From: Candidatus Saccharimonadia bacterium
GTDB taxonomy: Bacteria > Patescibacteriota > Saccharimonadia > UBA4664
DNA: 64,000 bases
Reading direction: 5' to 3'
Assembly: GCA_035544015.1 (NCBI GenBank)
Contig: DATKIP010000064.1
Coordinates: forward strand, 2,131 to 66,130
The notes beneath the pieces were generated by a model. That model did no database searches and was not told the DNA's origin. It was given only the letters and a program-made list of their open reading frames with translations. The position numbers and the translations under genes were made by a program. Shown one piece after another: positions 9,043 through 63,236 of the stretch (positions are counted from its first letter, which is position 1; the number at the start of each line of letters is the position of its first letter).

Positions 9043-9495
9043 TCAAACCTTCCAGCCGCGGTCGGGCTGCGCCCGCATCGCCTCTGTCTCGTCTGGCCGC
9101 GCGTAATCATCCTCGAGCCGCCAGGTGGTCCCCAGCTCTGGCGTCGAGGCCTCAAACACCTCGCAGTCGGTGAGCCCCACCAGCCGGTGCCGCTGCCCCA
9201 CTTGGCTCGTGTACCCCATGCCCGGCTCGAGCTCGATTTGCTCTAGCTCGCCGGCCGCATTTTCGAGCAGCACCGCCGCCCTCCCCGCATGCACCACCCA
9301 GCTCTCGCTCTTGGCGTCGTGGGCCTGCAGGCTCACTCGGCAGCCTTTATTGATATGCAAAATCTTCATCATGTACGGCCCGCCGTCGGCCGTTAAGTGC
9401 ACTTCGTAGCCCCACGGCTTGACCACGCGTTTCGCGTACCCAGCCGTCGTGAAACCACCCTTGTCGATCATATCGAGAAAATCTAAATGCTTCAT
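9043..9495 (-). CDS. Cupin-domain protein (phosphomannose-isomerase-type cupin)
   Basis: PWGYE...KGCRVSLQAHDAKSESWVV cupin motifs (G(x)5HxH-like and QxH). Confidence 0.55.
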   Translation of the reverse strand: MKHLDFLDMIDKGGFTTAGYAKRVVKPWGYEVHLTADGGPYMMKILHINKGCRVSLQAHDAKSESWVVHAGRAAVLLENAAGELEQIELEPGMGYTSQVGQRHRLVGLTDCEVFEASTPELGTTWRLEDDYARPDETEAMRAQPDRGWKV

Positions 9496-9533
9496 ATGCT
9501 TCCCATTGTACTCGCGAAGCGTATAATCAGGCC

Positions 9534-11362: not shown

Positions 11363-11779
11363 CTAAAACAGCTTGTCGACCGCCACTTTCACTTCGTAAT
11401 ACGTCGCCAGTTTTTCCGTACTCGTGAGCACAAACGGCTTGGTTTGCGCCGGATCAATGTCGCTCACCGTGCCAGTGGCCGTGCCCAGCGCCTTGCCGGC
11501 CTTGTCGAGAAACGTCGCGGTAATCGTGGCGCTCCGAGCCGCGTCTTCGTTGTTCGTGATGCTGCCACTCACCACCAGGTACCCCGCCGCATTCGTGGTC
11601 ACCTTTGAATTCGCCAGCGTCGTGCGCTCCTTGGTGGCCGGGCTGGCGGTGGCCGCTGGTGTCTCGCCCGCCGGCCGCTCGTTCACAAATTTATTGCCGC
11701 TTTCGGCCCATAGCAATGCCGCCCCAACCGCCACTACGACCACGCCAACAATCGTAAACAATCTGCGAGATGTACTCAT
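11363..11779 (-). CDS. Membrane-anchored hypothetical protein
   Basis: N-terminal TM LFTIVGVVVVAVGAALLWA; the rest is Thr/Ala-rich. Confidence 0.45.
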   Translation of the reverse strand: MSTSRRLFTIVGVVVVAVGAALLWAESGNKFVNERPAGETPAATASPATKERTTLANSKVTTNAAGYLVVSGSITNNEDAARSATITATFLDKAGKALGTATGTVSDIDPAQTKPFVLTSTEKLATYYEVKVAVDKLF

Positions 11780-11800
11780 ATCGCGCCTCCTGATATGAAG

Positions 11801-33014: not shown

Positions 33015-33157
33015 ATTGCTCACCCTCTCGGTCAAGGTTCAGGACAAACCGCATTATAACATAAAACAAAGATAAATACTAGGATTCGACCCCACCAGAG
33101 TCCTGTATTATTTGGGATTTTCCCTATATAATGGGCAAACTTACTGAGGAGGTCGAA

Positions 33158-36100
33158 GTGAACCGCTTGAAACGTGCCGCTGCAATTGCCCTGATCGCCC
33201 TACTAACCCTATCCGGTCTCACGCTGCCCGTGCCCGGCGCACACGCCTCCACCCCCACCGGCTCCTCGATCAACACCCACACCGTCATGGTCGACGATCA
33301 AAGCAAAATCGTGTCGTGGGTGCCCAACCAAGACCAGGCCTATGCCACCGTGGCCGCCAGCGCCTGGAATTTCCTCCTTAATAACGTCCCCACCGACGAG
33401 CACGGCCTGCCTGGCTTCTACACCCACTCCTACTTCAACCCCGACACGCGTGAGCTGTCGTTCAACCCCCACAACCCGGCCGGCACCAATGCCATGCTCA
33501 CCGAATCCGCGCTCCAATACTACCAATATTCCGGTGACGCCCGCGTGCTCACGCTGGTCGAAAATTCCGTCACATACCACCTGGATCACGGCATGACTGC
33601 TGCCGGCGACAATTGGTCAAACGTACCCTACGCCAGCAGCGATTACGGCAACACCACCTACGCCGGCGCTAGCCGCGGCAATTCCGACGGCGTCGGTGAC
33701 GGCGTGGGCGTGATCGAGCCCGACAAAGTCGGCGAGCTCGGCGTCGCCTTCGTGCAGCTGTACAAGATCACCGGCGAGCAGAAGTACCTCACCGCCGCCA
33801 TCAATGCTGCCAATGCCCTCGCCAGCCACGTGCGCGCCGGCAACGCCACCCAGTCGCCGTGGCCCTTCCGCGTGAAGGCCTCCGACAACACCATCAAAGA
33901 GCAATACACCGCCCACACCATCAGCCCCATCGAGCTGCTCGACAATCTCATTGCGCTCGGTCAGGGCAACACCGCCTCGTATCAGTCCGCCCGCACCACC
34001 GCCTGGAACTGGCTCATGCAGTACCCTATGCAAAGCAACAACTGGAGCACCTACTTCGAGGACGTCGATTTCCATCCCGGCGCCAATAACAACACCCAAA
34101 TGAACTCCATAATGACCGCCCGCTACCTCTTGCAGCACCCCGAGTACGACGCCAACTGGGAGACGCACGTGCGCGGGCTGATCGCCTGGACCGAGCAAAA
34201 CTTTGCCGTACCCGCTTTCGGCGCCAACACCATCCAGGAACAGGCCGATTTTGCCCACCCCATGGGTAGCCACACCAGCCGCTACTGCGATGTGAACGCC
34301 TTGCTCTACCAGCGCACCGGCGACCTCGCTGCCAAAGAAAAAGCCTACCGCGCCTGCAACTGGGCCACCTACATGGCCCGCGACAACGGCGTGGTCATTG
34401 ACGGCCCCGAGATCAACAACGCCTGGTTCACCGACGGCTACGGCGACTTCATCCGCGGCATGATGGTAGCCATGGGCGGTTCGCCCGACTTCGCCCCCGC
34501 CGGCCAAAACCACCTGCTCCAAACCAGCTCCGTGGTCACGAACGTCACGTACGGCCCGTCGCAGCTCAGCTACTCCGCCTTTGAGGCCGCCGGCACCGAG
34601 GTCATCAAAGTCGCCAGCGCCCCCACCGGCGTCGCGATCAATGGCGTTAGCCTCGCTCAGCGCAGCGACCTGGCCGCCGAGGGCTGGACCTACGACGCCG
34701 CTCAAAGCGTGGTACGCGTGCGCCGCGATACGGGCAAAAACGTCACCATCGCACTCAACGGTACCCCCACCAACCTGCTTCCCAACGTGAGCCTCAGCAC
34801 CGGCGCCACCACCTACACCGCACCGGCCAGCTTCAACGTCACGGCCGCCGCCAGCGACCCCGACGGCACCATCACCAAGGTCGAATTCTACCAAAACGGC
34901 GCCCTCGTGAGCACTGTCACCACCACGCCTTATACCTTTGCCGCCGCCGCTCTACCCGCCGGCAGCTACGCCTTCAGCGCTCGCGCCTACGACAACCAAA
35001 ACGCCAGTAGCAACTCCAATACCGTTAGCGTCACCGTCAACGGTGCCTCCCAGGGTGGTACCTGGACCGGCGCCGACATTGGCACCACCGGCGTAGCCGG
35101 CTCCACTGCTGCCGCGGGCAGCGCCATTACCGTGAAGGGTGGCGGCACCGATATCTGGGGCACTGCCGACTCGTTCCAATTCGGCTACCAGCAAATGACC
35201 GGCGACGGCGAGATCAAAGCCCGCGTCGTCACGCAGCAAAACACCGACCCCTGGGCGCTAGCCGGCGTCATGATCCGCGACACCCTCGCCCCCGGCGCCA
35301 AAGAGACGCTAGCCGCCATGACCCCCGGCCACGGTGCAGCCTTTGACTACCGCACCGCCACCGGTGGCAGCACCACTTACGTCAACGGCGCCGCGGCCAC
35401 CGTGCCATATTGGATGCGCCTCGTGCGCGCCGGCACCACCATTACCGCCTCCAAATCCACCAACGGCACCGCCTGGACCAGCATGGGCAGTGCTACCGTT
35501 AGCCTCGGCACCACCGCCTACGTTGGCCTGGCCGTCACCTCGCACAACCCGTCCGCGCTCGGCACCGCCACCTTCGACAACGTCAGCTTCACCGGCCAGT
35601 CCACTGCCGACACCACCCCGCCCGTCATCTCGGGCATAAGCGTCTCCGGCGTGAACCCCAACGGCGCCACGGTCAGTTGGACCACGAGCGAGCCCGCCAC
35701 CTCGCAGATCGAATTCGGTCCCACCACCGCGTATGGCAGCTCCACCACGCTCAACAGCAGCCTGGCCACTGCTCACACCCAGGTAGTTCCCGACCTGGCC
35801 TCCGCCACCACTTACCACTACCGCGTCAAATCCGCCGACGCCGCGGCCAACCTGGCCACCTCGGCCGACAACACCTTTACCACCCCTACTCCGGCCGACA
35901 CCCAGGCCCCGTCGGCCCCCACCGGCCTCACCGCTACGGCCATTAGCTTTACCCAGGCCAATCTAAACTGGACCGCCGCTACCGACAACGTCGCCGTCAC
36001 CGGCTACCAGGTCTTCCGCGACGGCGTCCAAATCGGCACCGCCACGGGCACCACCTTTAGCGACGCCGCCCTCACCTTCAACACGAATTACACCTACACC

Positions 36101-37909
36101 GTGCGCGCCGTCGACGCGGCCGGCAACGTTTCGCTCGATTCTAATGCGGCCGCTATCACCACCCCCACGCCCGACACCCAGGCTCCCAGCGTACCCACCG
36201 GCCTCACCGCCAGCGTCACCCTGCCCAACCAAGTTGACCTCAGCTGGACCGCCGCCGCCGACGACACCGCTGTCACAAAATACCTCGTGAAGCGAAACGG
36301 CGCCGTCATAGCTCAACCCACCGGCACCACGTTCTCCGACACCACCGCCACCGGCGGTAGCACCTACAGCTACGTCGTGGCCGCCGCCGACGCCGCCGGC
36401 AACACATCGGCCAGCTCCGACCCAGCCACCGCCACTGTTCCCGACACCACCGCCCCCACCGCGCCCGTGAGCCTCACCGCCACGGCCGTTGCCGGGCCGC
36501 AAGTCAACCTATCCTGGGGCGCCTCCAGCGATGCCGTCGGTGTCACCAGCTACCTCATCTTCCGCGACGGCCAACCCCTCGACACCGCCACCGGCACGAG
36601 CTACTCGGACGCTAATGTAGTAACCGGCACCACCTACAATTACACGGTCGAAGCCACCGATGCCGCCGGTAACCTCTCCGCTGCCTCCAACACCGCCACC
36701 ATTACACCTCCCGTGCCCGACACCCAAGCGCCCACCGCGCCCACCGGTCTCACCGCCACGGCTGTCAGCTTCACCCAGGTGAACCTCGCCTGGACCGCCG
36801 CTACCGACAACATCGCCGTCACCGGCTACCAAATCTTCCGCGACGGCGCCCAGGTCGGCACCACCACTGGCACCACCTATGCCGACACCGCCCTGCTAGC
36901 CGGCAACAGCTACGCTTACACCGTGCGTGCCACCGATGCCGCCGGCAACCTTTCGCCCGCGTCCAACACCGCCACGGCCACCACGCCCACGCCCGACACC
37001 ACGCCGCCGTCGGCCCCCAGCGCCCTCACCGCCACCGCGCCCACCGGCACGCAGGTCAACCTCAGCTGGACCGCCAGCACCGACAACGTCGGCGTCACTC
37101 GCTACAATGTCCTGCGCGGCGGAACCCAAATCGGCACCACTACGAGCACGAGCTATGCCGACACCACGGTCGCCGCCGGCACCAGCTACTCCTACACTGT
37201 GACTGCCCAAGACGCCGCCGGCAACGTGAGCGCCGCGTCCAACACCGCCACCGTCACCACGCCGGCCCCGGTCGTCACGCTCGCCGTCGACACCCAAGTG
37301 GCCGTCCACACCACCACGGCCGCTACCACCATCACCTCGCCGGCCTTCACCACCGCCGGCCCAGGCGAGCTCCTCGTAGCCTTCGTCTCCTCCGACGGCC
37401 CCAGCGGCGCCTCCACCTTTAGCTCCGTCACCACCACCGGCCTCACCTGGACCCTGCGCAAGCGCCAAAACACCCAGGCCGGCACCTCCGAGATCTGGAC
37501 CGCCCCGGCCGCCGCCAAGCTCACGAATGCCACGGCCAAAGCCACCCGCACCGGTTCCTACCGCAGCTCCCTCGTCGTCACCGCCTTCAAGGGCGCCGAC
37601 CTCACGACCATCGGCGCCACCGCCGGAGCCAGTGCCGCCACCGGCGCCGCCACTGCCAGCCTCACCACCACCCGCGCGGGTTCCTGGGTCTGGGCCGTTG
37701 GCAACGACTGGGACAACGCCGTCGCCCGCACGGTCGGTACCGCCCAAACCAAAGTCGATGAGTTCCTCACGAGCACCGGCGACACCCTCTGGGTCCAGCG
37801 CCGCACCGCCGTCACCCCGGCCGCCGGCACCGTTGTTACCATCAACGACACCGCCCCCACCGCCGACCGCTACAACCTGGCGCTCATCGAGATTCTGCCC
37901 GCTCCATAG
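33158..37909 (+). CDS. Giant secreted multidomain protein: (alpha/alpha)-toroid-like N-terminal domain, Ig-like domain, concanavalin-like lectin domain, 6 FN3 repeats, and C-terminal beta-rich domain
   Basis: Signal peptide after the GTG start (GAGGAGG SD); the ORF track starts at ATG 33131, right after TATATAAT. FN3 repeats ...TGLTAT..L.WTAATDNVAVTGYQ.FRDG.... The lectin-like domain is GGTWTGADIG...GTATFDNVSFTG. Confidence 0.75.
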   Translation: MNRLKRAAAIALIALLTLSGLTLPVPGAHASTPTGSSINTHTVMVDDQSKIVSWVPNQDQAYATVAASAWNFLLNNVPTDEHGLPGFYTHSYFNPDTRELSFNPHNPAGTNAMLTESALQYYQYSGDARVLTLVENSVTYHLDHGMTAAGDNWSNVPYASSDYGNTTYAGASRGNSDGVGDGVGVIEPDKVGELGVAFVQLYKITGEQKYLTAAINAANALASHVRAGNATQSPWPFRVKASDNTIKEQYTAHTISPIELLDNLIALGQGNTASYQSARTTAWNWLMQYPMQSNNWSTYFEDVDFHPGANNNTQMNSIMTARYLLQHPEYDANWETHVRGLIAWTEQNFAVPAFGANTIQEQADFAHPMGSHTSRYCDVNALLYQRTGDLAAKEKAYRACNWATYMARDNGVVIDGPEINNAWFTDGYGDFIRGMMVAMGGSPDFAPAGQNHLLQTSSVVTNVTYGPSQLSYSAFEAAGTEVIKVASAPTGVAINGVSLAQRSDLAAEGWTYDAAQSVVRVRRDTGKNVTIALNGTPTNLLPNVSLSTGATTYTAPASFNVTAAASDPDGTITKVEFYQNGALVSTVTTTPYTFAAAALPAGSYAFSARAYDNQNASSNSNTVSVTVNGASQGGTWTGADIGTTGVAGSTAAAGSAITVKGGGTDIWGTADSFQFGYQQMTGDGEIKARVVTQQNTDPWALAGVMIRDTLAPGAKETLAAMTPGHGAAFDYRTATGGSTTYVNGAAATVPYWMRLVRAGTTITASKSTNGTAWTSMGSATVSLGTTAYVGLAVTSHNPSALGTATFDNVSFTGQSTADTTPPVISGISVSGVNPNGATVSWTTSEPATSQIEFGPTTAYGSSTTLNSSLATAHTQVVPDLASATTYHYRVKSADAAANLATSADNTFTTPTPADTQAPSAPTGLTATAISFTQANLNWTAATDNVAVTGYQVFRDGVQIGTATGTTFSDAALTFNTNYTYTVRAVDAAGNVSLDSNAAAITTPTPDTQAPSVPTGLTASVTLPNQVDLSWTAAADDTAVTKYLVKRNGAVIAQPTGTTFSDTTATGGSTYSYVVAAADAAGNTSASSDPATATVPDTTAPTAPVSLTATAVAGPQVNLSWGASSDAVGVTSYLIFRDGQPLDTATGTSYSDANVVTGTTYNYTVEATDAAGNLSAASNTATITPPVPDTQAPTAPTGLTATAVSFTQVNLAWTAATDNIAVTGYQIFRDGAQVGTTTGTTYADTALLAGNSYAYTVRATDAAGNLSPASNTATATTPTPDTTPPSAPSALTATAPTGTQVNLSWTASTDNVGVTRYNVLRGGTQIGTTTSTSYADTTVAAGTSYSYTVTAQDAAGNVSAASNTATVTTPAPVVTLAVDTQVAVHTTTAATTITSPAFTTAGPGELLVAFVSSDGPSGASTFSSVTTTGLTWTLRKRQNTQAGTSEIWTAPAAAKLTNATAKATRTGSYRSSLVVTAFKGADLTTIGATAGASAATGAATASLTTTRAGSWVWAVGNDWDNAVARTVGTAQTKVDEFLTSTGDTLWVQRRTAVTPAAGTVVTINDTAPTADRYNLALIEILPAP
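35900..37270 (+). repeat. Tandem array of five near-identical FN3-encoding repeats (~270 bp each), plus one diverged copy upstream
   Basis: Recurrent DNA blocks CCGACACCCA(G/A)GC.CC...ACCGGCCTCACCGC and protein blocks DTQAPSAPTGLTATA...; it is intragenic. Confidence 0.7.
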
Positions 37910-47638: not shown

Positions 47639-48151
47639 TTACTTCTGGCCGCTGGCCTTGTAGTCCGCGATGGCCTTGGCCACTTTGCCGTCATTCTTCA
47701 GGTTTTCCCAGAACAACACTTGCTGACGGCTCACGTACATTACATCCTCAGGTCCGTGGAGCTCGCCACCCAGCTTTGCCAGCGAGACCTGCTGGTTGTT
47801 GGCGGCCGCCGCGGCCGAGGTATCTTTGGGCTGCACCGTTTGCTGCACTTGGAGGTAGTAGATGTCGGTACACTTTACGTAGCTGTTATCGACTTTGGTG
47901 AGTTTACAGAAATACACCTGGCCGTTCGTCAAAAACACTGCCTGGTACTGCTTGCCTTTAACGCCGCTGTCGGCCGTCGCTGCGGCGTAGGCTTTGCTGG
48001 CAAACCATCCCAGCACCGTTAGGCCCACTAACACGAGCACTATGGCTACTACTTTGCTCAACATCCCCCCGCCACCACCGCTCTTGCGGGAGACCGCCGG
48101 CACATCGGCCAATCCGTTATCGGCTACCTGTCCTTGTCGTCGTACGTCCAT
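47639..48151 (-). CDS. Membrane-anchored hypothetical protein
   Basis: Start MDVRRQG; Gly-rich segment then TM VVAIVLVLVGLTVLGWFA; no recognisable domain. Confidence 0.45.
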   Translation of the reverse strand: MDVRRQGQVADNGLADVPAVSRKSGGGGGMLSKVVAIVLVLVGLTVLGWFASKAYAAATADSGVKGKQYQAVFLTNGQVYFCKLTKVDNSYVKCTDIYYLQVQQTVQPKDTSAAAAANNQQVSLAKLGGELHGPEDVMYVSRQQVLFWENLKNDGKVAKAIADYKASGQK

Positions 48152-48332
48152 ACGAAATCTATCTCCACCTAAACTTAGCGTTAGGATTATGTTACATGAG
48201 CACCAATAGAGTGTCCAGGCCGCGGCGTTCTCAGAATTGGCCCAAATTTTGCTTGGCGCGCGCCTCAACACCGGCTATAATCATAAGGACTATAGAGGTG
48301 ACCGTGAACAGCGTGAAAAGGGCGATCCGCTC

Positions 48333-49148
48333 ATGAAACTGCGCAGATTAACCGGCTTGGCGGTCGCCGCTCTCGCGCTGCTCGCCGCCGCACCGGCGCT
48401 GGCCAGCTTGTCGCAGGGCTATGCCACCACCACGGCGATTGCCGCCGGCAGCCTGGTGTCGCTCGATCCCAAGTCGAGCGGCAGCGTGGTGGTGGCCGAC
48501 CTCAACAACGTCGCCCGCCTCTTTGGCGTGGTGGTGCCGCCGTCGTCGGCCTCCATCTCGCTCAGCGGCACCGGATCCGGTCAGGTGCAAGTCACCACCA
48601 CCGGCAGCGCGCTCGTGCTCGTGAGCACGGCCGGCGGCGACATCCACGTGGGCGATTACATTACCATCTCGCAAATCGCCGGCGTCGGCCAGAAAGTCGG
48701 CACCTCGAGCGCGCGAGTCATTGGCACGGCCCAGGCCGACTTCAACGGCAGCGGTGACGGTGTCACCAAGCGCACCGTCGACGACGGCAGCGGCAAAAAA
48801 GAGGTTGCCATCGGCCAAATCCCCATCGTCATCGCCGTCTCCAGTTACACCTCCACCGACGGCAAGCAATCGTATGTGATCCCCAACTGGCTCCAAAACC
48901 TTTCCAACACCCTCGCCGGCAAGGCCGTTTCGCCCATTCGCATCATTATCGCCGGGCTTATTCTCATCGTCGCCATCATCAGCATTAGCGTGTTGCTCTA
49001 TTCGGCCGTGCGCAACAGCATTATCTCGATCGGGCGCAACCCACTATCCAAGGGCGGCGTCTTGCAGGGCATGTTGGCGGTCGGCGGGTTCGCCTTGTTG
49101 ATTCTGGCCGTCACGGCGGTAGCAATGTATCTGGTGATATCGAGGTGA
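48333..49148 (+). CDS. Secreted protein with a C-terminal two-helix hairpin resembling an ATP synthase c-subunit (loop GRNP) but lacking the conserved carboxylate; first gene of the atp cluster
   Basis: Signal peptide MKLRRLTGLAVAALALLAAAPALA. C-terminus IIIAGLILIVAIISISVLLYSAVRNSIISIGRNPLSKGGVLQGMLAVGGFALLILAVTAVAMYLVI. Its stop overlaps the atpF start (GTGA). Confidence 0.45.
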   Translation: MKLRRLTGLAVAALALLAAAPALASLSQGYATTTAIAAGSLVSLDPKSSGSVVVADLNNVARLFGVVVPPSSASISLSGTGSGQVQVTTTGSALVLVSTAGGDIHVGDYITISQIAGVGQKVGTSSARVIGTAQADFNGSGDGVTKRTVDDGSGKKEVAIGQIPIVIAVSSYTSTDGKQSYVIPNWLQNLSNTLAGKAVSPIRIIIAGLILIVAIISISVLLYSAVRNSIISIGRNPLSKGGVLQGMLAVGGFALLILAVTAVAMYLVISR

Positions 49149-49741
49149 ATATGGAAGTTCTCATTTTAGCAGTCGTAATCGTGATTATGCTCATCGTCGT
49201 AGTGGTGCAAAACGTTCAGCTGCGCGGGGCCACCAAAATTCGGGCCGCAGCCGCCGGTCAGCCCAAGCCCATCAAGATCTCCGAGCCCACCGCCGTCGAG
49301 CTCGAAGCCAAACTAAAAGCCGCCTACGAAGCCAAAATCGCCGAAGCGTCGCAGGGCTTTGGCGTCGACCTCAAGGCCACCTCCACGCGCCTCGGCGAAC
49401 AGGTCTCGCGCCTCACCACCACCGTGATCGAGGAGGAGCTCGAGGCCTACCAGAAGACGCTCGAGGAAGTCCGCCACGCCGCCACCGAGGCCATGGAGCA
49501 AATCCACCAAGCCGTCGAGCACCAGCGCGTGGAGCTCCACGCCGGCATGGAGGCCGAGCTGGCCGAAGAAAAAAAGCACCTGGCCGACAAATTCGACGCC
49601 AAAATCGGCGACGTCGTATCGAGCTATGTTTCCGAAGCCCTGGGCAGCGGCGTTGACCTCGGCGCGCAGATGCAGTTCATTCTCACGAGCCTCGAGGCGC
49701 ACAAAGAAGAAATCCGAAAGGACCTCCTCAATGGCATCTGA
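49145..49741 (+). CDS. atpF: F-type ATP synthase subunit b
   Basis: One N-terminal TM then a long charged coiled-coil (EAKLKAAYEAKIAEA...); its position in the operon fits. Confidence 0.7.
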   Translation: MNMEVLILAVVIVIMLIVVVVQNVQLRGATKIRAAAAGQPKPIKISEPTAVELEAKLKAAYEAKIAEASQGFGVDLKATSTRLGEQVSRLTTTVIEEELEAYQKTLEEVRHAATEAMEQIHQAVEHQRVELHAGMEAELAEEKKHLADKFDAKIGDVVSSYVSEALGSGVDLGAQMQFILTSLEAHKEEIRKDLLNGI

Positions 49742-50315
49742 ACCAATCCCCTCAACCACCTCCGCTGCACCCGCCATGCCGCCCGTAGCAACCGCGCCGG
49801 TTCCAGCGGCCACCCCCGTAGCGCCCGCCTCTGCGCCACCAGTATTCGAATTACCCCCCGCCATTTACAGTCCGGCGCTGCTCGAATCCGTCATCTACGA
49901 CCTCCAATATTACCTCGACTGGACCCGCCAAAACCAAATCCGCAAAACTGTGGGCGCCAAAGCCAAAGAAGAGCCCAGCCACTCGGCCGAAACCGTACTC
50001 GTCATTAAAGCCTGGCAGGGGAATGCGCCCGCCACCCTCGACAGCCTCGAACAGCTCCTCGCCTACCTGCGCGGGCTCAAATTGCCCGAAATTCACATCA
50101 TGCTAGCCGCCCTACCCAACCACGCACAGCGCGAGACCATCGTGAGTTGGTTCCACGCCAACGTGTCGCCGCGCCTCCTGCTCTCGTTCGTCGCCGACCG
50201 CAACTTGGGCGGTGGGCTGGTGGTGCGCACTCCCAACCGAGTGTTTGATTACACCTGGAAGCAGCAGCTGGTGGCCGGTCGCAGCAAAATGGCGGAGATA
50301 TTAAAACGTGTTTGA
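49731..50315 (+). CDS. atpH: F-type ATP synthase subunit delta (OSCP), divergent with Pro/Ala-rich N-terminus
   Basis: C-terminal OSCP motif RNLGGGLVVRTPNRVFDYTWKQQL. Overlaps atpF by 11 bp. The ORF-track start 49626 is rejected. Confidence 0.6.
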   Translation: MASEPIPSTTSAAPAMPPVATAPVPAATPVAPASAPPVFELPPAIYSPALLESVIYDLQYYLDWTRQNQIRKTVGAKAKEEPSHSAETVLVIKAWQGNAPATLDSLEQLLAYLRGLKLPEIHIMLAALPNHAQRETIVSWFHANVSPRLLLSFVADRNLGGGLVVRTPNRVFDYTWKQQLVAGRSKMAEILKRV

Positions 50316-51810
50316 TAATCCCAAATTTGCCAAACTAGTAGCCGACGGCCGTCCCACCGGCGAGGTCGTCGGCGTCGACCGTTTCCTCGTGACCATCCAG
50401 GGTATGGGCGGCGTGGCTATCAATGCGCTCATTTACTTCGACAACGGCTACCAAGGCCTCGTGCGCGAAGTCCGGGCCGAAACCGTCATGGTGCTCAACC
50501 TCAGCGCCGAATCCATCCCCATCGGCACCCTGGCCGTCATCGAGGCCGACGAAATCGTGACCGGGGTAGGGGACGCGCTGCTGGGCCGCGTGGTGAGCGT
50601 CACAGGGCAGCCGCTCGACGGCAAAGGTCCCATCACCTTCAGCCACTTCGACTCTGTCTTCAAGGTGGCGCCCGGCATCATCGAGCGCCAGCAGCTCACC
50701 GAACCCCTTACCACCGGTGTCGCCATCTCCGACCAACTCTTCCCGCTCGTCAAAGGCCAACGCATCGCGGTGCTCGGCGACAACAAAACCGGCAAATCAG
50801 CCTTCACCATGCAGCTCACGCTGGCCCAAAAAGACACCGGCCGCTTCGTGGTGCACGTGCTCATCGCCAAGCGCAAATCCGATGTCGACCGCCTCATCTC
50901 GAAACTCAACGAAACCGGTGCCATCTCGTACTGCACCATCATCGTAGCCTCGGTTTTTGACTCCCTCACCCAGTCGTACCTCGCGCCCTACATCGGCGCC
51001 ACCATCGCCGAGCACTTTTGGCACGGTGGCAAGGACGGCGTCATTGTGTACGACGACCTCTCCAACCACGCCAAAGTCTACCGCGAACTCTCCCTCTTGC
51101 TCAAAGTCGCCCCCGGCCGCGCCAGCTACCCCGGCGACATGTTCTATGCTCACTCCAGCCTGCTCGAGCGCGCCGGCCGCCTCGTCAAAAACGGCGCCAC
51201 GCTCGCCTCCATCCCCGTGGTACTCACGCCCAACAACGATATCACCGCGCCGCTGCCCACCTCCATCATGTCCATCACCGACGGCCAGCTCATCTTCGAT
51301 ACCGAGGCCTTCCGCGCGGGCATCCGTCCCGCCATCTCGGTGGGCCTGTCCGTCTCCCGCGTCGGCGGCGTCGGCCAAACCAAGCGCCAAAAGAAGCTCA
51401 CCGCCAGCCTCTTCAAAAAACTCGCCGCCTACCGCCAAGCCGCCGAATTTTCACACTTCGGCTCCGAGCTAGCCATCGAATCACGCGCCGATCTCGAGCT
51501 CGGCAAAAAAATCTACGAAGCCCTCAAACAACCCCCCGACATGATTTACTCCAGCAACGAGCAAGATCTCATCCTAGGTACCGTCATGAAAACCGAGGGT
51601 AAAATCACCATCAATATCGACAGTCTCAAGCGCAAAGCCAAAGAGCTGGCGCCCACCATGACCGCCGAATCCGACTGGGACGGCGCCATCGCCAGGCTGC
51701 TGGCTGAGGTTACCGTGCAAGCGGCTGCACCCCCAGCCGCCCCCACCTCCCCAGCCGCCCCCGGCCAGCCCCCAGCGCCGCCCGCCCCTGCCCCCGAGGC
51801 CAAAAAATGA
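50308..51810 (+). CDS. atpA: F-type ATP synthase subunit alpha, with a Pro/Ala-rich C-terminal extension
   Basis: P-loop GDNKTGKSAF (alpha-type GDRQTGKT) and alpha-subunit N-terminal beta-barrel. Confidence 0.85.
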   Translation: MFDNPKFAKLVADGRPTGEVVGVDRFLVTIQGMGGVAINALIYFDNGYQGLVREVRAETVMVLNLSAESIPIGTLAVIEADEIVTGVGDALLGRVVSVTGQPLDGKGPITFSHFDSVFKVAPGIIERQQLTEPLTTGVAISDQLFPLVKGQRIAVLGDNKTGKSAFTMQLTLAQKDTGRFVVHVLIAKRKSDVDRLISKLNETGAISYCTIIVASVFDSLTQSYLAPYIGATIAEHFWHGGKDGVIVYDDLSNHAKVYRELSLLLKVAPGRASYPGDMFYAHSSLLERAGRLVKNGATLASIPVVLTPNNDITAPLPTSIMSITDGQLIFDTEAFRAGIRPAISVGLSVSRVGGVGQTKRQKKLTASLFKKLAAYRQAAEFSHFGSELAIESRADLELGKKIYEALKQPPDMIYSSNEQDLILGTVMKTEGKITINIDSLKRKAKELAPTMTAESDWDGAIARLLAEVTVQAAAPPAAPTSPAAPGQPPAPPAPAPEAKK

Positions 51811-52667
51811 GTTCACGTTCACTGGGCATCGAGCATGAAGCCGGCCAGGTCGGCACCGTCTCCGAGCTCACGGGTATCTTCGAGTCCATCGCCTCCATGC
51901 GTATCGGCAAAATCAAAGACCGCGTCGCGCGCAGCCAGCAGTTTTTTTCCGAATTGTGGCAAATCTACACCCAGCTGCGGGTCGACCCCCAAGACCGTCT
52001 CACCGGCAAAAACAGCCCGACTCGCGACAAACCCAACGTCTTCCTAGCCCTCACGTCCGAAGGCGGTCTATCGGGCGACATTGACGGCCGCATCGTCAAA
52101 ACCGTGCTCGAAAACATCGATCCCACCACCACCGACCTCATTGTGATCGGTGCGCACGGCGCCACGCAATTCGTGCAAAACCACGCCAAGATCAAGCGTT
52201 ACTTCCGCCTGCCCGACATCGACCAAGCCATCGATGTCTCGCCGATCGTCGACGAACTCTTGGGCTACAAGCAACCCACCGTCTGGTTCCAGCGCTACGT
52301 GTCGCTGTCGGTGCAGGAAGTCGGCCGCATCGACCTCCTCGGCCGCGTGCGCACCCTGGCCACCGGCGCCGAAGCCGCCAAAACCACCGACATCATCAGC
52401 CCTCGCGACTACCTGTTCGAGCCCAGCGTCGATGACGTCGTACGCTATCTCGAATCGGTCATGATGGAAATCGCCCTCTCGCAGGTCATCCTCGAATCCC
52501 GCCTCGCCCAATACGCCTCGCGATTCACCGCCATGTCGGCGGCCAAAAAGCGCGCCAAAGAGCTCCAAACCCTCCTCGTCATGAACTACAACCGCGCGCG
52601 CCGCGGCGAGGCCGACGACCGCATCAAAGAAATCGTCAACGCTATGAACGCGCTGCACGCGAATTAA
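51807..52667 (+). CDS. atpG: F-type ATP synthase subunit gamma
   Basis: Gamma-like N-terminal helix (ASMRIGKIKDRVARSQQF) and C-terminal helix (NRARRGEADDRIKEIV). Confidence 0.8.
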   Translation: MSSRSLGIEHEAGQVGTVSELTGIFESIASMRIGKIKDRVARSQQFFSELWQIYTQLRVDPQDRLTGKNSPTRDKPNVFLALTSEGGLSGDIDGRIVKTVLENIDPTTTDLIVIGAHGATQFVQNHAKIKRYFRLPDIDQAIDVSPIVDELLGYKQPTVWFQRYVSLSVQEVGRIDLLGRVRTLATGAEAAKTTDIISPRDYLFEPSVDDVVRYLESVMMEIALSQVILESRLAQYASRFTAMSAAKKRAKELQTLLVMNYNRARRGEADDRIKEIVNAMNALHAN

Positions 52668-52753
52668 ATCGCTGCCCCCAATCCCGTATAATAATCGAAG
52701 GTGTCGCAACCCCGCACCAAGTCCCCGCACCCACGGCACAAGGAGAAAGCTCC

Positions 52754-53245
52754 ATGTCAACCGGCACGCAGCAAAAATCCAGGGGTCGAAGCGCGTCGAT
52801 CGCAAGAATCCTCGCAGTAGCAGTACTAGCAATCCTCGGCCTGATCAAAGGCAGAGCCATGCCGGATACGTCCTCAGATTCAGACGTTGTGTACCGCATC
52901 CAGGGCGCATGGATCCATGCAGGGACCGAGGAGCCCAACGAGATCAAGGTTCTCATCAACGGCGAACCGCCACCTCCAAGCCTCGGCGTTCCACCCGGAT
53001 ACACGAGCAAGGATGATCACGCCCTCCTGAGTGCTCTTATCTCTGTTCCTCCCGGAACCGTCCTCGAGGTGATCGTGACTGCCCGGAGCAATCCCCGATC
53101 CAATGAACCCCTCGAGCAGCTATGCTCTATTACGCGGCCCGGCGAAGTACAGCGACCCTCTTCGGGCCATGCCAACATTGGGGACTATGTGAAGCACATC
53201 GTGAGGGACGACCAGGGCCCACTCATGTGCACGAGGGTCGTGTAG
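52754..53245 (+). CDS. Small secreted two-cysteine protein, paralog 1 of 4 (unknown family) inserted within the atp operon
   Basis: Basic N-terminus plus hydrophobic anchor. Shared motifs with the three downstream ORFs: IxxLING, PxGTVLEVxVTA, first Cys (EQLCSI), C-terminal GPLMCTR. Confidence 0.55.
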   Translation: MSTGTQQKSRGRSASIARILAVAVLAILGLIKGRAMPDTSSDSDVVYRIQGAWIHAGTEEPNEIKVLINGEPPPPSLGVPPGYTSKDDHALLSALISVPPGTVLEVIVTARSNPRSNEPLEQLCSITRPGEVQRPSSGHANIGDYVKHIVRDDQGPLMCTRVV

Positions 53246-53288
53246 AGGCCCCGCAGTTTACAGGCGCTCCTTCGCCTGCTAACCAACA

Positions 53289-53324
53289 GCCCCGGGATGG
53301 CCCAACGTCGTACCATCCCGGGGC
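53289..53324 (+). promoter_or_regulatory. 12-bp perfect GC stem hairpin (GCCCCGGGATGG-N12-CCATCCCGGGGC) followed by an unusually AT-rich stretch
   Basis: Seen in the spacer between paralogs 1 and 2; no T-tract. Confidence 0.35.
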
Positions 53325-53438
53325 CAGCTCTCGTGCGCTACAATAATAATTTGCCTCAGCTTAAACACATTGATATCGTACTTTCTTGGGCACCCAAATA
53401 CCTCAGGTGCCGGCACCTACGCCTCCCAGAGAGGGGAC

Positions 53439-53912
53439 ATGCCGACTAGCGTTGGTCAAAGATCCGGAAACAAGGTCATACGAAGCCTCGGTATGGCTGC
53501 TGTCGTGGTAGCGCTTACCCTCGTGGCTGCGCATTTAGCTGGCAACAACGGCAGCGTTCAATCGCCTGAGATGCGCAAATACACCATGAAGGGCTCGTGG
53601 TTCAACGCCGACTTCAAGAACCAGAATCGCATCGATCTTCGCATCAATGGCAGGCGAGCCGGTGGCTCCGTCGGCTACTCACCGAGCGGTGGCACCGAAC
53701 ACACATACTCCGTCCCTGCCGGATCGGAGCTCACCGTGACGGTCACCGCCTCAGCCCTCGCTGTAGCCCCGACCGGAATCGAGGACCTGATCCAAAGCTG
53801 CTTCATCCTCCTGCCCAACGAATCCGAGACAACACCCACCCTGCCGCCCAACGCCGCGCGTCGCGTCGTGGACAACGACCAAGGGCCGCTCACCTGTAGT
53901 CGCACCGCGTAG
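53439..53912 (+). CDS. Small secreted two-cysteine protein, paralog 2 of 4
   Basis: Start MPTSVG after GAGAGGGGA; motifs RIDLRINGR, AGSELTVTVTA, QSCFIL, ESETTPTLPP, GPLTCSR. Confidence 0.55.
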   Translation: MPTSVGQRSGNKVIRSLGMAAVVVALTLVAAHLAGNNGSVQSPEMRKYTMKGSWFNADFKNQNRIDLRINGRRAGGSVGYSPSGGTEHTYSVPAGSELTVTVTASALAVAPTGIEDLIQSCFILLPNESETTPTLPPNAARRVVDNDQGPLTCSRTA

Positions 53913-53956
53913 GCCCACGCCAAGACAACCTCGCCGTACCTACCCACAGGAGCGCC

Positions 53957-54481
53957 ATGTCCAGGCAAGCTACCAGATCAAGGCCGATTCGAAGCGTCAT
54001 CGCGGCTGCCGGAGCGATCGCGCTAACCCTCGCACTGGCACATGTCATCGCCAACCCCCATCCGCTGGCAGGCCCCGGCATCGCAGTCAACCAGTTGCCG
54101 GACGGAGTGGCCATGGAGGACGGCACCGACGAGCGTGTCAAATACATCCTGCATGGTGTGTGGGGGTCCGCCTCGCGCACGGATACCAGCCGCATCCAGA
54201 TACTCGTCAATGGTGTCGTAGTAGCCGACCATCCCGCCGCGACGCCAGCCGGTGAACTCACACGGGCTTACCTCCTTTCCGCGGGCAATGAGCTTGAAGT
54301 AACGGTTCACGCCGTCGGTCGGTCGATTGAGGGCGTACCCGGGAAGAGGTTCAAGCTGCTGCAGCAGTGTTCGATCCTACGGGAAGGAGAAAACGAAACA
54401 ACCCCCCATCTGCCCCCGCGCGCTTTCCTGCGTGTCACCATCGACCCCCAGCCCCCTCTCACCTGCCACCGCACGACGTAA
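53957..54481 (+). CDS. Small secreted two-cysteine protein, paralog 3 of 4
   Basis: Signal peptide; motifs RIQILVNGV, AGNELEVTVHA, QQCSIL, ENETTPHLPP, PPLTCHR. Confidence 0.55.
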   Translation: MSRQATRSRPIRSVIAAAGAIALTLALAHVIANPHPLAGPGIAVNQLPDGVAMEDGTDERVKYILHGVWGSASRTDTSRIQILVNGVVVADHPAATPAGELTRAYLLSAGNELEVTVHAVGRSIEGVPGKRFKLLQQCSILREGENETTPHLPPRAFLRVTIDPQPPLTCHRTT

Positions 54482-54508
54482 CGTCGTCGCGACCCAGCCG
54501 GAGGCGCC

Positions 54509-55027
54509 ATGTCCAACAGTACACGGCAAAGCTCCAACCGTACGCGGCTGTTGGCGCTACTCGCCATTCCTCTGGCGCTACTCATTGCCCCATCTCTCGT
54601 CAAGCTCGCTACCGGCCCTACCAATACCCCAGATGGTTACCACGAGGTCTACCTACCCGACTCCGACCTACATGTTCTTGCCTTTCCGGGCATAGAGCAT
54701 CACCGAGAAGATGGCCGTATTTACGAGATGGGAGGGAGCTGGGCGGGGAGCTGGACGGGAAACGGTATCCAGTACAAGATCAACGGCGCTGTGATCAAGA
54801 CCCATACCGTTGGCAGAGCAAAAAGCCGCGACCATCAATTCGTCCTCGTCCCCGCAGGCACGGTGCTGGAGGTGTTGACCACCGCTGGCAGCCTCACCCA
54901 GCTCACGTCAAGATTCTGCGTCATCGCTGCGTTCCACGAAGATCCTCACAATGTACCGCCGCCTGCTGGCCGGTCGGTTGAAGGGCCAAGTCCGAGAAAC
55001 CCCCTCACCTGCATTCGGATAGCGTAG
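54509..55027 (+). CDS. Small secreted two-cysteine protein, paralog 4 of 4
   Basis: Signal peptide; motifs QYKINGAV, AGTVLEVLTTA, SRFCVI, NPLTCIR. Confidence 0.55.
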   Translation: MSNSTRQSSNRTRLLALLAIPLALLIAPSLVKLATGPTNTPDGYHEVYLPDSDLHVLAFPGIEHHREDGRIYEMGGSWAGSWTGNGIQYKINGAVIKTHTVGRAKSRDHQFVLVPAGTVLEVLTTAGSLTQLTSRFCVIAAFHEDPHNVPPPAGRSVEGPSPRNPLTCIRIA

Positions 55028-55108
55028 GCGCACCGCCACGCCCTGGGCGAACATCCACCCAGGGCGTGGCTCCCATGCCTCAAATCATGTAAAATAACAA
55101 TAAGCGTT

Positions 55109-56431
55109 ATGGCAACCACTACCGCAGCCCACACTGGTCGCATCGTCAGCATCCGCGGACTCATCGTGGAGGTCGCCTTCCAAGGGGAGGGCCGCCCGAA
55201 CTTGCGCGAAATCCTCACCATCGAGGGCCACCCCGAAATTCTGCTCGAAATCCAATCGTTCAACGAGCACCGCGACGCCATTTGCATCACCTACATGACC
55301 AGCTCGCTCGTCGCTCGCGGCGCCGCGGTAGTCTCCACCGGCACCACCATCTCGGTGCCCACCGGCGCCAAAGCCCTCGGCCGCCTGTTTAATTCCGTGG
55401 GCCAGCCTGCCGACAACCTCGAGCCCCTCGGCCCCGACGTACCGCGCCGTAGCGTATATATGAGCGCCGCCAGCTCACAGCTGTTCACCAACAAAGACGA
55501 GCTGCTCGAAACCGGCATCAAAGTGCTCGACTTCTTCACGCCCTTCGTGAAAGGCCGCAAAATCGGCATCATCGGCGGCGCCGGTGTCGGCAAGACCGTC
55601 CTCATCATGGAAATCATCAACAACATTGGCAAAGACCCATCCAAACTCGCCTTCTTCGCCGGCATTGGCGAGCGCATCCGCGAGGGCCACGAGCTCTACG
55701 AAACGCTCAAAGAGCGCGACATGCTCTCCGGCACCGCCATGTTTTACGGCCAAATGAACGAAAACCCCGCCATGCGCGCCATGGTCGGCATCACCGCCAC
55801 CACCCTCGCCGAATACTTCCGCGACGAAGAAAAACGCGACATCCTGTTCTTCGTCGACAACGTCTACCGCCACATCCAGGCCGGCAACGAGCTGAGCACC
55901 ATGATGGGCCAAATCCCGTCCGAGGGCGGCTACCAAGCCACCATTTTCTCCGACCTCAAGCGCTTCCAGGACCGCCTCTACTCCAACGCCAACGGCTCCA
56001 TCACCGCCGTGCAGACCATCTACGTGCCGGCCGACGACCTCACCGACCCGGCCGTGCAAGAAATTAGCTCCCAAATCGATTCCGTCATCGTGCTCTCCCG
56101 CGCCGTCGCCGAGGCCGGCATCCGGCCCGCCGTCGACCTCATCCGCACTAGCTCCAGCCTCGTCACCCCCGAAATAGTGGGGGATAGGCACTATCTGCTT
56201 GTCACCCAGGTGCAGGCCATCATGCAAAAATACGACTCGCTCAAGAACATCATCGCCATCATCGGCGAAAACGAGCTCTCTCCCCAAGACCGCGCCGACT
56301 ACCAAAAGGCCAAAAAGCTTATCGAATTCTTTGCCCAAAGCATGTTCGTCACCGAGAAGCTCAACGGCATCCCCGGCACCTATTTCTCCCGCGAACAAAC
56401 CCTCAGCGGCGTCGAAGAGATTTTGATTTAA
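55109..56431 (+). CDS. atpD: F-type ATP synthase subunit beta
   Basis: P-loop GGAGVGKTVLIMEIINNI; DELSEED-like region; full length. Confidence 0.95.
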   Translation: MATTTAAHTGRIVSIRGLIVEVAFQGEGRPNLREILTIEGHPEILLEIQSFNEHRDAICITYMTSSLVARGAAVVSTGTTISVPTGAKALGRLFNSVGQPADNLEPLGPDVPRRSVYMSAASSQLFTNKDELLETGIKVLDFFTPFVKGRKIGIIGGAGVGKTVLIMEIINNIGKDPSKLAFFAGIGERIREGHELYETLKERDMLSGTAMFYGQMNENPAMRAMVGITATTLAEYFRDEEKRDILFFVDNVYRHIQAGNELSTMMGQIPSEGGYQATIFSDLKRFQDRLYSNANGSITAVQTIYVPADDLTDPAVQEISSQIDSVIVLSRAVAEAGIRPAVDLIRTSSSLVTPEIVGDRHYLLVTQVQAIMQKYDSLKNIIAIIGENELSPQDRADYQKAKKLIEFFAQSMFVTEKLNGIPGTYFSREQTLSGVEEILI

Positions 56432-56562: not shown

Positions 56563-56820
56563 ATGGACAAAAAAACCAAGCGCTTCAAGCTCAAAATCCT
56601 CAGCCCCTACCAGACCTACTACCAAGGCGACGCCGTCTCGCTCAGCGCCGCCAACCGCACCGGCCCGTTTGATATTTTGCCCGGCCACATCAACTTTTTC
56701 TCATTGCTCACCAGCGGCGCCGTGGTGGTAAACACCGGCTTCCAGCGCCTCGAATTCCAGATCGGCCGCGGCGTGCTGCGCGTCAGCCAAGACAACGTCA
56801 CCCTGTTTGCGGACGTTTAG
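56563..56820 (+). CDS. atpC: F-type ATP synthase subunit epsilon, N-terminal beta-sandwich only (no C-terminal helical hairpin)
   Basis: Epsilon-like LKILSPYQTYYQGDAVSLSAANRTGPFDILPGHINF...; only 85 aa. Confidence 0.65.
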   Translation: MDKKTKRFKLKILSPYQTYYQGDAVSLSAANRTGPFDILPGHINFFSLLTSGAVVVNTGFQRLEFQIGRGVLRVSQDNVTLFADV

Positions 56821-60020: not shown

Positions 60021-63000
60021 ATGAAACCCCACCATAAGCTATCGTTGGCCTGTGGGGCAATAGTGCTTGTGCTGGGATTAATTAGCGCGCTGTTGCCGTC
60101 CAGCACGCGTAGTGCCGGGCCGTGCCCCTGCACTATCTGGTCCACGAACCCGTCGGTGTCGGTCATCAGCAATGGCCAGCCTTTGGAGCCGGGCGTAAAG
60201 TTCTCCGCCGACGCCGATGGCTACATCCTGGGCGTGCGATTTTACAAAGATACTGGTATGGGTGGAGCTCACGTCGGCCACCTCTGGGACAGCCTCGGCC
60301 ACAAGCTGGCCGAAGCCACCTTCGGCACCGAAACCAGCACCGGCTGGCAAACCGTCACCTTCGACAATCCGGTCAAAGTCACCGCCAGCACCCTCTACGT
60401 CGCCTCGTATTACGCCGCCGACGGCAATTTTGCGCGCACCTCCGGGGGGCTCAGCTCGGCCGTCGACGCCGGTACGCTCCACGTGCCTGCCAACGTCACT
60501 GCCGCCGCCCTCGACGGGTTCGGCGACAACCACAACGGTGTGTTTGCCGACGGCGTCAGCGCGTACCCCTACCAGAGCTTCGGTGGCAGCAATTATTGGG
60601 TGGATGTTGTCTACGACACCGTCGTGCCCGATACCGCCCCGCCGCTCGTAACCGTCACTCAGCCCAAGTCCTCGTCCTACGGCGTGCTCGCCGCCGGCCC
60701 CTACACGGCGCAGTTCAACGAACAACTCGATCCCGCCACCATCACCACGAGCACCTTCACCGTCACCGGCTCCACCGGCCCGCCGGTCGCCGCCTCAGTA
60801 TCGTACGACGCTGCCAGTTTCACAGCTTCCATCAAGCCGTCGTCGCCGCTGGCCCCCGGCGAGTACACCGCCAAACTGGCCGGCGGGGGAGGATCAGCCA
60901 TCACCGACCTGGCCGGCAACCATCTCGCCAGCGACTTCACCTGGACCTTCAGCGTGGGCGCCACCCCCGGCGGCTCACCCACCGCCGGCCCCGGTGGACC
61001 CATCCTCGTTATCACGTCGAGCACCAATCATTTTAGCGATTACTTCGCCGAAATCTTGCGCGCCGAGGGCTACAACAGCTTCGCCACCGTCGACCTTGCC
61101 ACCGTCGACGCCACCATGCTCGGCAATTACCAGCTCGTCGTGCTCGGCGATGTCGCACTGTCGGCTCCCCAAGCCTCCATGCTCTCTACCTGGGTGAACG
61201 CCGGCGGTAAACTCATCGCCAGCCACCCCGACAAAAAACTCGCCGGCCTGCTCGGCCTCACCGACGACGCCGCCACCCTCACCAACGCCTACCTCAAGGT
61301 CAACACCGGCAGCGCCCCCGGCTCCGGCATCGAGAGCGCCTCCATGCAATACAAAGGCCCGGCCGACCGCTACACCCTCAGTGGCGCCAGCTCCGTGGCC
61401 GACCTCTACACCGACGCCGCCACCGCCACCACCAAGCCGGCCGTCTCGCTCGCCACTGCCGGCAGCGGCCAGGCCGCCGCCTTCACCTACGACCTGGCCA
61501 AATCCATCGTGTATCTGCGCCAGGGCAACCCGGCCTGGGCCGGCCAAGACCGCGACGGCGACTCCCTGGATCGCTCCGACGACCAATACTTCGGCGCCAA
61601 AATCGGCGACGTCCAGCCCAACTGGAACGACCCCACCAAGCTCGCCATCCCCCAAGCCGACGAACAGCAACGCCTGCTCGGCAACCTCATCACCCAAATG
61701 ATGTCCACCGCCCTGCCCCTGCCGCACTTCTGGTATTTCCCCAAGGTGGGCATTAATACCCTGCCCAAGGCGGTATTAATGATGGCCGGCGACGACCACG
61801 CCACCGCCGGAGGCACTTACACCTCCATGGTGCGTCTGAGCGGCCTCAGTCCAGGCAATTGCTCACTCTTGGACTGGGAGTGCGACCGCATGACCTCCTG
61901 GTATTACACCAACACGCCCCTCTCCAATGCCGCCGCTGCCAGCCTGGCCGCTCAAGGCCACGAATTGGCCGACCACCTGTCCTTCAGCAGCGGCTGTGGC
62001 AGCAGCTACACCGAAGCCAGCTACCTCAGCTTTTTTGCCAGTGATCTGGGCGCCTTCCGGTCCAAATACACCAGCCTGCCCAGCCAGCGCACCAACCGCT
62101 GGCACTGTGTGCCGTGGGGCGATTGGGCCAGCCTGCCCAAAGCCGAAGTCCAAAACGGCGTTCGCCTCGACGCCGGCTATTACTACTACCCCACAGCCTA
62201 CACCACCGCCGGCGACGGCCTGTTTAACGGCTCCGGCCTGCCCATGCGCTACGCCGACACCGACGGCTCCCTCATTGACGTCTACCAGCAAGTCAGCCAC
62301 CTCGTAAATGAATCCGGCCGCCCCCACCCGGCCGACATCACTACCATGCTCGACAATGCCCTGGGCGCCAGCGGCTACTACGGCGTGTTCGGCACCCACT
62401 TCGACTGGACCGATAGCTACGACCGACAGCTCATGACCGCCGCCACGGCCCGCAACGTCCCCATGATCTCCGCCGACCAGCTCCTCACCTGGCAAGACGG
62501 CCGCGGCGCCTCCAGCCTCACCGGCTTTGGCTTTAGCGGCAACGAATTAACCTTCAACCTGGCCGCCGCCGGCGGCGCCACCGGCATGCAGACACTCATC
62601 CCCGCGACCGGCCCCACCGGATCAGTCACAGCCGTGTCGCGCGATGCTGTCACGGTCTCATACGGCACCGTGAATATTAAAGGGGTATCGTACGCCGTAG
62701 TCCCAGCCGCCCCCGGCGCCTACACCGTCTGCTATAACACCTGCAACCCGGCTCCCACTCCCACTCCCACGCCCACCCCTACTCCCACGCCAACGCCCAC
62801 TCCAACGCCGACTCCCACACCCACCCCAACCCCAACTCCAACGCCCACCCCGACTCCGACACCGACCCCCACGCCGACTCCAACACCCACACCTTCTGCC
62901 GCGCCCACAGCTACTGCCACCCCCACGCCCAAGCCTTCTTCCAAGCCCCAGAGCAGTGCCACGCCCGCGGCATCGCCGGCTGCGGCCGGGCCCACCGCGT

Positions 63001-63236
63001 CTCCCAGCCCGGAGGCCTCGGCCAGCCCGGCGCCCACATCTAGTGCCAGCCCCCAAGCCTCGCCCAGCCCCACCGCGTCCGCCACGCCCGCACCCGCCGC
63101 CGGGTCCGGCAACAACACCGTGCTCATACTAGGCATGGCCGCCGGCGGATTAGGCTTCCTCGGGCTCCTCATTTTCCTCGCGCTCTGGCTCCGCCGTCGG
63201 TCCAAAGGTCCCGACGACCCCGGCCCCCTGAGCTAG
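60021..63236 (+). CDS. Large cell-surface protein: signal peptide, DUF4082-like N-terminal domain, Ig-like domain, large central domain, (PT)n linker, S/A/P-rich stalk, C-terminal TM anchor
   Basis: Signal peptide; (PT)~35 repeat; C-terminal [29 protein letters not shown]. Confidence 0.7.
62750..62893 (+). repeat. (CCN ACN)n microsatellite-like repeat encoding a (Pro-Thr)n linker
   Basis: Seen in sequence; intragenic. Confidence 0.8.

Follow-up and report, generated by a model that had tools for sequence, protein, structure and literature searches.

The window examined here, a stretch of 64,000 nucleotides (nt) from a Candidatus Saccharimonadia bacterium (GenBank assembly GCA_035544015.1, contig DATKIP010000064.1, 72.8 kb), carries an F1Fo ATP synthase (atp) gene series in which atpG and atpD are separated by 2.44 kb. 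According to the open reading frame (ORF) list of the window, this space is filled by four plus-strand ORFs, referred to below as paralogues 1 to 4 and annotated at NCBI under the locus tags VMT30_03285 to VMT30_03300. A preliminary description of the DNA had proposed four tandem small genes that split atpG from atpD, and the ORF coordinates together with the Pfam matches of the two flanking genes bear this out. The insert is bounded exactly by the stop codon of atpG and by the AT-rich atpD leader TGTAAAATAACAATAAGCRTTATGGC. The features of the insert and its borders are as follows (aa, amino acids).

51807–52667, +: atpG (F1 gamma; PF00231, E 3.1e-32), left border of the insert
52687–52692, +: TATAAT, a -10-like box 62 nt 5′ of paralogue 1, read from the sequence, of putative function
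52754–53245, +: paralogue 1, 163 aa, Cys124 and Cys159, predicted signal/anchor helix and beta-sandwich ectodomain
53289–53324, +: perfect 12-bp GC-rich hairpin (inverted repeat) 3′ of paralogue 1, without a U-tract
53339–53344, +: TACAAT, a -10-like box 5′ of paralogues 2–4, read from the sequence, of putative function
53439–53912, +: paralogue 2, 157 aa from the preferred ATG, Cys121 and Cys153
53957–54481, +: paralogue 3, 174 aa, Cys138 and Cys170
54509–55027, +: paralogue 4, 172 aa, the most divergent copy, Cys137 and Cys168
55035–55070, +: perfect 13-bp GC-rich hairpin (inverted repeat) 3′ of paralogue 4
55088–55108, +: AT-rich atpD leader TGTAAAATAACAATAAGCGTT, which includes TAAAAT; right border of the insert
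55109–56431, +: atpD (F1 beta; PF00006, E 3.9e-65)

Over 6,089 bp, the whole insert included, the window agrees at 100% identity with a Logan assembly of run SRR8863102; the arrangement is therefore not an artefact of one assembler.

Coding character, paralogy and export signals

All four proteins are joined by pairwise blastp at 27–86 bits and 29–36% identity, the strongest pair being paralogues 2 and 3 (86 bits, 35% identity over 170 aa) and the weakest paralogues 3 and 4 (27 bits). A leave-one-out test, in which a profile of three ectodomains was run against all ORFs of 50 aa or more (9,944) in the window and 80 related loci, recovered the omitted paralogue 1, 2, 3, and 4 at E values of 1.2e-14, 8.6e-20, 7.2e-16, and 2.7e-8, respectively, with the next best ORF at E ≥ 0.3. 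By these sequence comparisons, the four ORFs are true paralogues, as the preliminary description had held. The called frames all show a GC content that falls from the third to the first to the second codon position (GC3 > GC1 > GC2), as coding sequence in a genome of ~60% GC should, and each is preceded by a purine-rich ribosome-binding site: AAGGAG for paralogue 1 (52740–52745), GAGGGG for paralogue 2 (53431–53436), AGGAG for paralogue 3, and GGAGG for paralogue 4. GC3 is 0.65–0.71 in the four genes, 0.78–0.84 in the atp genes, and 0.75–0.85 in most genes of the window; the low values fit recent acquisition or weak expression.

The start of paralogue 2 is most likely the ATG at 53439, because it lies behind the GAGGGG ribosome-binding site and gives a product whose N-terminal end aligns with its counterparts in the three remaining proteins. 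Two other starts are less likely: the TTG at 53370, which yields the longest ORF (180 aa) and adds 23 unmatched residues, and the NCBI start at 53493 (139 aa), which cuts away the charged N-region. Against the size range of 163–180 aa given earlier, paralogue 2 most likely measures 157 aa. Each protein contains exactly two cysteines, 31–35 residues apart. They had been described as strictly conserved, which is right as to number, two per protein, and too strong as to position, the first cysteine of paralogue 4 being shifted by 1–2 alignment columns. The reported ENETTPxLPP motif does occur in paralogues 2 and 3 only.

The N-region of each paralogue holds 3–4 Lys/Arg and no Asp/Glu and is followed by one 15-residue hydrophobic core (Kyte–Doolittle 2.4–2.6), so that the positive n-region and hydrophobic h-region of a Sec-type signal are present in all four. 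An AXA-like cleavage site is visible in paralogue 3 (ALA-H), arguable in paralogues 1 and 2, and missing from paralogue 4. The proteins are accordingly best described as predicted Sec substrates that would either stay N-terminally anchored or be released after cleavage, and the charged N-regions and hydrophobic cores support the original proposal of secreted or N-terminally anchored products.

Putative transcription signals within the insert suggest separate units. The hairpin behind paralogue 1 has a ΔG of −27.3 kcal/mol (z −4.0; 0/200 shuffled sequences as stable) and that behind paralogue 4 a ΔG of −32.7 kcal/mol (z −5.7); the former may be a terminator or an mRNA stabilizer. Paralogues 2 and 3 are separated by 44 nt and paralogues 3 and 4 by 27 nt.

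An orphan family with a predicted beta-sandwich ectodomain

Scans of all four proteins against Pfam (E up to 10), NCBIfam, and PHROGs gave no match, and a profile search of PDB sequences returned only non-significant antibody light-chain matches (E ≥ 0.1). When 5.8 billion protein clusters were searched with the profile through a word index, the sole matches were self matches, every one a single-member cluster. HMMER, run exhaustively with the profile against 1.84 billion representatives (about 15 billion proteins), likewise found no full-length homologue besides the four proteins. On these searches, the four proteins are an orphan family, in agreement with the preliminary description, which had not recognized it.

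The exhaustive search did return ten non-self matches, comprising nine giant, repetitive proteins of 1,194–2,585 aa and one 352-aa repeat protein, all of which cover only profile positions ~28–100, in 3–17 repeats each. Four of these proteins were scanned and contain DUF11, PKD, Cadherin-like, or Big-type immunoglobulin (Ig)-like repeats; the remaining ones have similar tandem repeats as judged by sequence. The shared strand motif “I.v.vNG … aGt.L.VtvtA” would signal an extracellular beta sandwich rather than family membership. With the bacterial Ig-like repeats (DUF11 PF01345, PKD, Cadherin-like, Big_x) that make up giant surface proteins, the four proteins share this central motif and, by prediction, a beta sandwich and an extracellular location; they differ in being single, predicted membrane-anchored domains with two cysteines and a putative disulfide. 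The matches reach significance mainly by adding 5–17 weak repeat matches, and no Pfam profile of the Ig-like families matches the four proteins. Such partial matches fit a surface beta sandwich.

AlphaFold2 models built on an input alignment of the four paralogues only are all-beta. The ectodomain model of paralogue 3 (mean pLDDT 81.8, pTM 0.74) has eight strands, of which the sixth and the eighth carry the cysteines, and the full-length model of paralogue 2 (mean pLDDT 79.9, ectodomain blocks 85–96) has eight strands preceded by a helix (residues 22–34) that spans the hydrophobic segment. Conserved residues sit in the strands, namely Y.x.G.W in strand 1, aG..L.V.vtA in strand 5, the first cysteine in strand 6, and PL.C.R in strand 8, while the conserved I...NG lies at the turn between strands 2 and 3 and the long variable stretches are loops in both models. 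This modelled arrangement makes a disulfide between strands 6 and 8 plausible. Foldseek comparison of the paralogue 2 and 3 models with the PDB gave weak, generic beta-sandwich matches and no match at E ≤ 0.001.

Among known proteins, the closest architectural parallel is the MmpS family (PF05423; MmpS4 and MmpS5; PDB 8em5 and 9mvz). MmpS proteins consist of a single N-terminal transmembrane (TM) helix and a periplasmic sandwich of two four-stranded sheets linked by a conserved disulfide (PMC12122801, PMC12803245). The likenesses are (i) a length of ~140–175 aa, (ii) a single N-terminal helix with a positive cytoplasmic stub, (iii) an ectodomain of eight strands, as predicted in the models of paralogues 2 and 3, and (iv) two conserved cysteines, one on a central strand and one on the last strand near the C-terminus in the models. 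The differences are a cysteine spacing of 23 in MmpS5 versus 31–35 here, one gene 5′ of its transporter versus four tandem copies with no adjacent mmpL/RND gene, and an occurrence in Mycobacteriales versus Patescibacteria with no detectable sequence relationship. The term “MmpS-like” is thus used below as a description of architecture and as the name of a minority hypothesis, not as a classification.

Related loci and the origin of the array

Eighty Saccharimonadia loci, fetched with an AtpD query from GTDB contigs at one genome per species (AtpD identity 56–91%), provide the comparison. Genes atpG and atpD lie next to each other in 77 of the 78 loci in which both were placed, the distance between the aligned parts being at most 212 bp (median 36 bp). 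The larger distances correspond to a Pro/Ala-rich N-terminal extension of AtpD, not to intergenic DNA. This extension, ~44–87 residues long, is found at 9740–10000 in locus L005, ~9826–10000 in L010, and 4506–4640 in L001 and is absent from the AtpD of the window. Neither tblastn nor a profile search of all ORFs detected homologues of the four proteins in any of the 80 loci, and none occurs elsewhere in the window. AtpG is 75–90% identical to its counterparts in L001–L005 and L010, and AtpD is 82–91% identical to those of the closest relatives.

The only other interrupted atpG–atpD junction belongs to L005, the closest relative (AtpD 91%, AtpA 89%). Its insert of 1.6 kb encodes an unrelated, cytoplasmic PfkB-family sugar kinase (PF00294, E 5e-35; 8513–9601) followed by a hairpin of its own. 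Additional strain-specific ORFs lie at the atpD/atpC junction of L005 (176 aa, 11371–11901) and of L001 (210 aa, AT-richer, 6013–6645). Neither the window nor any other locus has a counterpart of these L005 and L001 cargo genes. Enlarged gaps were also seen at atpD/atpC in L011 (487 bp) and at atpA/atpG in L054 (530 bp). Variable cargo at these junctions, together with the lack of homologues in relatives, argues that atp operon junctions behave as permissive landing sites and that the four-gene cassette is, by sequence comparison, private to this genome.

The AT-rich leader TGTAAAATAACAATAAGCRTT stands directly 5′ of the atpD ATG, without a Shine–Dalgarno sequence, at 55088–55108 in the window, 9719–9739 in L005, and ~9804–9825 in L010. 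It is near-identical in L005 and L010 and partial in L001, and it is kept with or without an insert: in L010, which has none, it directly follows the atpG stop codon, which lies 29 nt from the atpD ATG. Its role may be that of an internal promoter or of an element for translation initiation. A single insertion event shared by the window and L005 was considered and rejected, the border similarity being that of the ancestral atpD leader, which also occurs in L001 and L010. A metagenome scan with the leader for further variants returned two chance loci, which have no atp genes.

The insert resembles genomic islets, strain-specific genes in the gaps of conserved operons, in that its content varies among close relatives at the same junction with no common cargo, its codon usage is atypical, and it has its own terminator-like hairpins. 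It differs in its host site, which lies, unusually, inside the essential atp operon, and in the lack of an integrase, a tRNA, or flanking direct repeats; the only tRNA in the window is at 32371.

The four genes probably did not multiply where they now stand. Duplication in situ would require extreme acceleration, because the paralogues are ~30–39% identical whereas the atp proteins are 80–91% identical to those of insert-free relatives; the duplications therefore probably predate arrival at this site. The simpler account would be that an already diversified array arrived en bloc from an unsampled donor, and a possible alternative is an ancestral array that the relatives have lost. Residual DNA similarity persists among paralogues 2–4 at their 3′ ends, at a spacing of ~550–570 bp, which is consistent with old tandem duplication. 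The ancient duplications of the preliminary description thus stay plausible, with the addition that they are probably older than the arrival at the atp site.

Possible roles and neighbouring genes

The best explanation is probably that of a genome-specific accessory cassette of anchored or secreted beta-sandwich proteins, likely disulfide-bonded, with an envelope or surface role. The cassette occupies a gap of the atp operon that appears to tolerate insertions, bordered by the stop codon of atpG on one side and the conserved leader of atpD on the other. It would comprise two units, the first consisting of the TATAAT box, paralogue 1, and its hairpin, and the second of the TACAAT box, paralogues 2-3-4 with their short gaps and ribosome-binding sites, and the second hairpin; atpD and atpC would keep their own conserved AT-rich leader. 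Each product is modelled as one eight-stranded beta-sandwich ectodomain of ~115 residues, probably with a disulfide between strands 6 and 8. Such proteins would most likely act at the cell envelope or surface as binding or adhesion modules or as small accessory subunits of a membrane complex, and loops diversified among the copies would be in keeping with an episymbiotic Saccharimonadia cell. A role in ATP synthesis is unlikely.

Several observations weigh against this account. The genes have no orthologues, and at ~30% identity the paralogues are saturated for dN/dS. A simple −35/−10 consensus scan called no complete promoter inside the insert, the insert hairpins have no U-tracts, and read-through from the atp operon is possible; as the genes lie on the same strand inside an essential operon, they may be co-expressed with the ATP synthase. 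The relatives were surveyed within ±10 kb of their atp genes; for the rest of those genomes, the search of protein databases argues only indirectly against homologues.

From the position inside an essential, co-transcribed operon, the preliminary description had proposed a functional link to the ATP synthase rather than random insertion. The four proteins would then be extracytoplasmic partners, assembly factors, or regulators of F1Fo that stay in the operon for co-expression. In a more far-reaching and equally improbable form, they would be lineage-specific partners of the membrane sector, co-expressed by read-through, that give this Saccharimonadia lineage a decorated or regulated F1Fo, with the conserved exported two-TM protein encoded at 48330–49148 as a candidate contact. 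Strand, position inside the operon, and possible read-through transcription favour this proposal, and since the operon head in this class is a conserved exported protein, unusual exported components are conceivable. The link is nevertheless unsupported, because relatives have no such genes, even those whose AtpD is 88–91% identical (absent from 80/80 related atp loci), and because L005 has an unrelated kinase at the same junction. That the genes might lie outside atp operons in relatives had been named beforehand as evidence against the link, and the finding is stronger still, as the relatives have no such genes at all. Moreover, F1 gamma and beta are cytoplasmic whereas the four proteins are predicted to be exported; neither their sequences nor their predicted folds resemble those of a known ATP synthase subunit or assembly factor; and hairpins and -10-like boxes of its own mark the insert, as does a codon usage atypical of the atp genes. 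Synteny largely refutes the proposal, which we regard as very improbable, and random insertion is now the better reading, given the relatives without the genes and the PfkB gene of L005.

A less remote, though still unlikely, proposal is that the proteins are MmpS-like adaptors and serve some large membrane transporter as a scaffold, in the way of MmpS4 and MmpS5 with the RND pumps MmpL4 and MmpL5, and that they may derive from an actinobacterial host lineage and have diverged past sequence recognition. It draws on the TM helix, the eight predicted strands, and the cysteines on strand 6 and the last strand, as well as on Foldseek, in which the MmpS5 structure 8em5_A ranks second in the PDB for the paralogue 3 model (E 0.039, probability 1.00, TM-score 0.63 normalized by the target), while for the paralogue 2 model 9mvz_A ranks second (probability 0.97) and 8em5_A 32nd. 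These MmpS5 matches are weak (E 0.024–0.039, TM-score 0.39–0.63). Against the proposal, PF05423 does not match at E ≤ 10, no MmpS protein appears among the exhaustive profile matches, and hhalign against an MmpS5 alignment gives a probability of 0.5%, a weak test since that alignment is shallow (≥79% identity). Nor do the large ORFs of the window include an RND/MMPL domain protein; the neighbours of the insert are the atp genes, an aldo-keto reductase, and an ABC-2 transporter. If true, this proposal would extend a mycobacterial transporter-adaptor type to a bacterium that perhaps lives on Actinobacteria.

Finally, the ORFs might not be genes: GC-rich intergenic DNA could contain such open frames by chance, or the assembly could be at fault. 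Their lack of homologues anywhere and their source, a metagenome-assembled genome (MAG), would suit this view, but the four frames recognize one another as protein, have ribosome-binding sites at the correct distance and the codon-position GC pattern of coding sequence, yield confident AlphaFold models from a four-sequence alignment, and are identical in the sequence of a second assembler. To a reasonable standard, this view is already refuted and has next to no claim to belief.

Orphan exported proteins are common in Patescibacteria MAGs, and the accessory cassette adds one more orphan family to the many exported proteins of this group that are annotated without a function. What is unusual is that the landing site lies inside an atp operon and that such insertions recur in the clade: at two junctions, three different cargoes occur in three close relatives. 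If the cassette is indeed accessory, an essential and usually rigid operon can serve as a landing site for strain-specific genes, and variable surface proteins of this kind would be candidates for host recognition in episymbionts.

The remainder of the atp gene series in the window is made up of the following genes.

48237/48330–49148, +: conserved exported protein, head of the atp gene series
49145–49741, +: atpF
49626–50315, +: atpH (delta), ORF with a weak OSCP match
50308–51810, +: atpA
56563–56820, +: atpC, short

The longest ORF for atpH begins within the end of atpF, with an overlap of 116 nt (49626–49741). Its true start is probably further downstream than 49626, because the OSCP match covers only residues 126–217. 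The N-terminal part of the AtpH ORF is Pro/Ala-rich, as is the tail of AtpA (about 51720–51807).

Neither atpB nor atpE adjoins atpF in the window or in L003. Directly 5′ of atpF is instead the exported protein of 273–303 aa (5687–6517 in L003), whose position is kept in 57 of the 80 Saccharimonadia loci. It has a predicted signal peptide, an ectodomain of ~200 aa, and a putative C-terminal two-helix hairpin. The hairpin loop, IGRNP, resembles the ARQP loop of the c-subunit; the second helix has no acidic residue, and Pfam ATP-synt_C does not match. Divergent from the operon head, a small membrane-anchored protein is encoded on the minus strand at 47639–48271; it has no Pfam match and is kept in L003 (5042–5566, −).

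The window also encodes two large predicted surface proteins, one of 1,592 aa (33131–37909) with fn3, Big_7, and DUF1349-like parts and one of 1,071 aa (60021–63236) with DUF4082 and Big_5.

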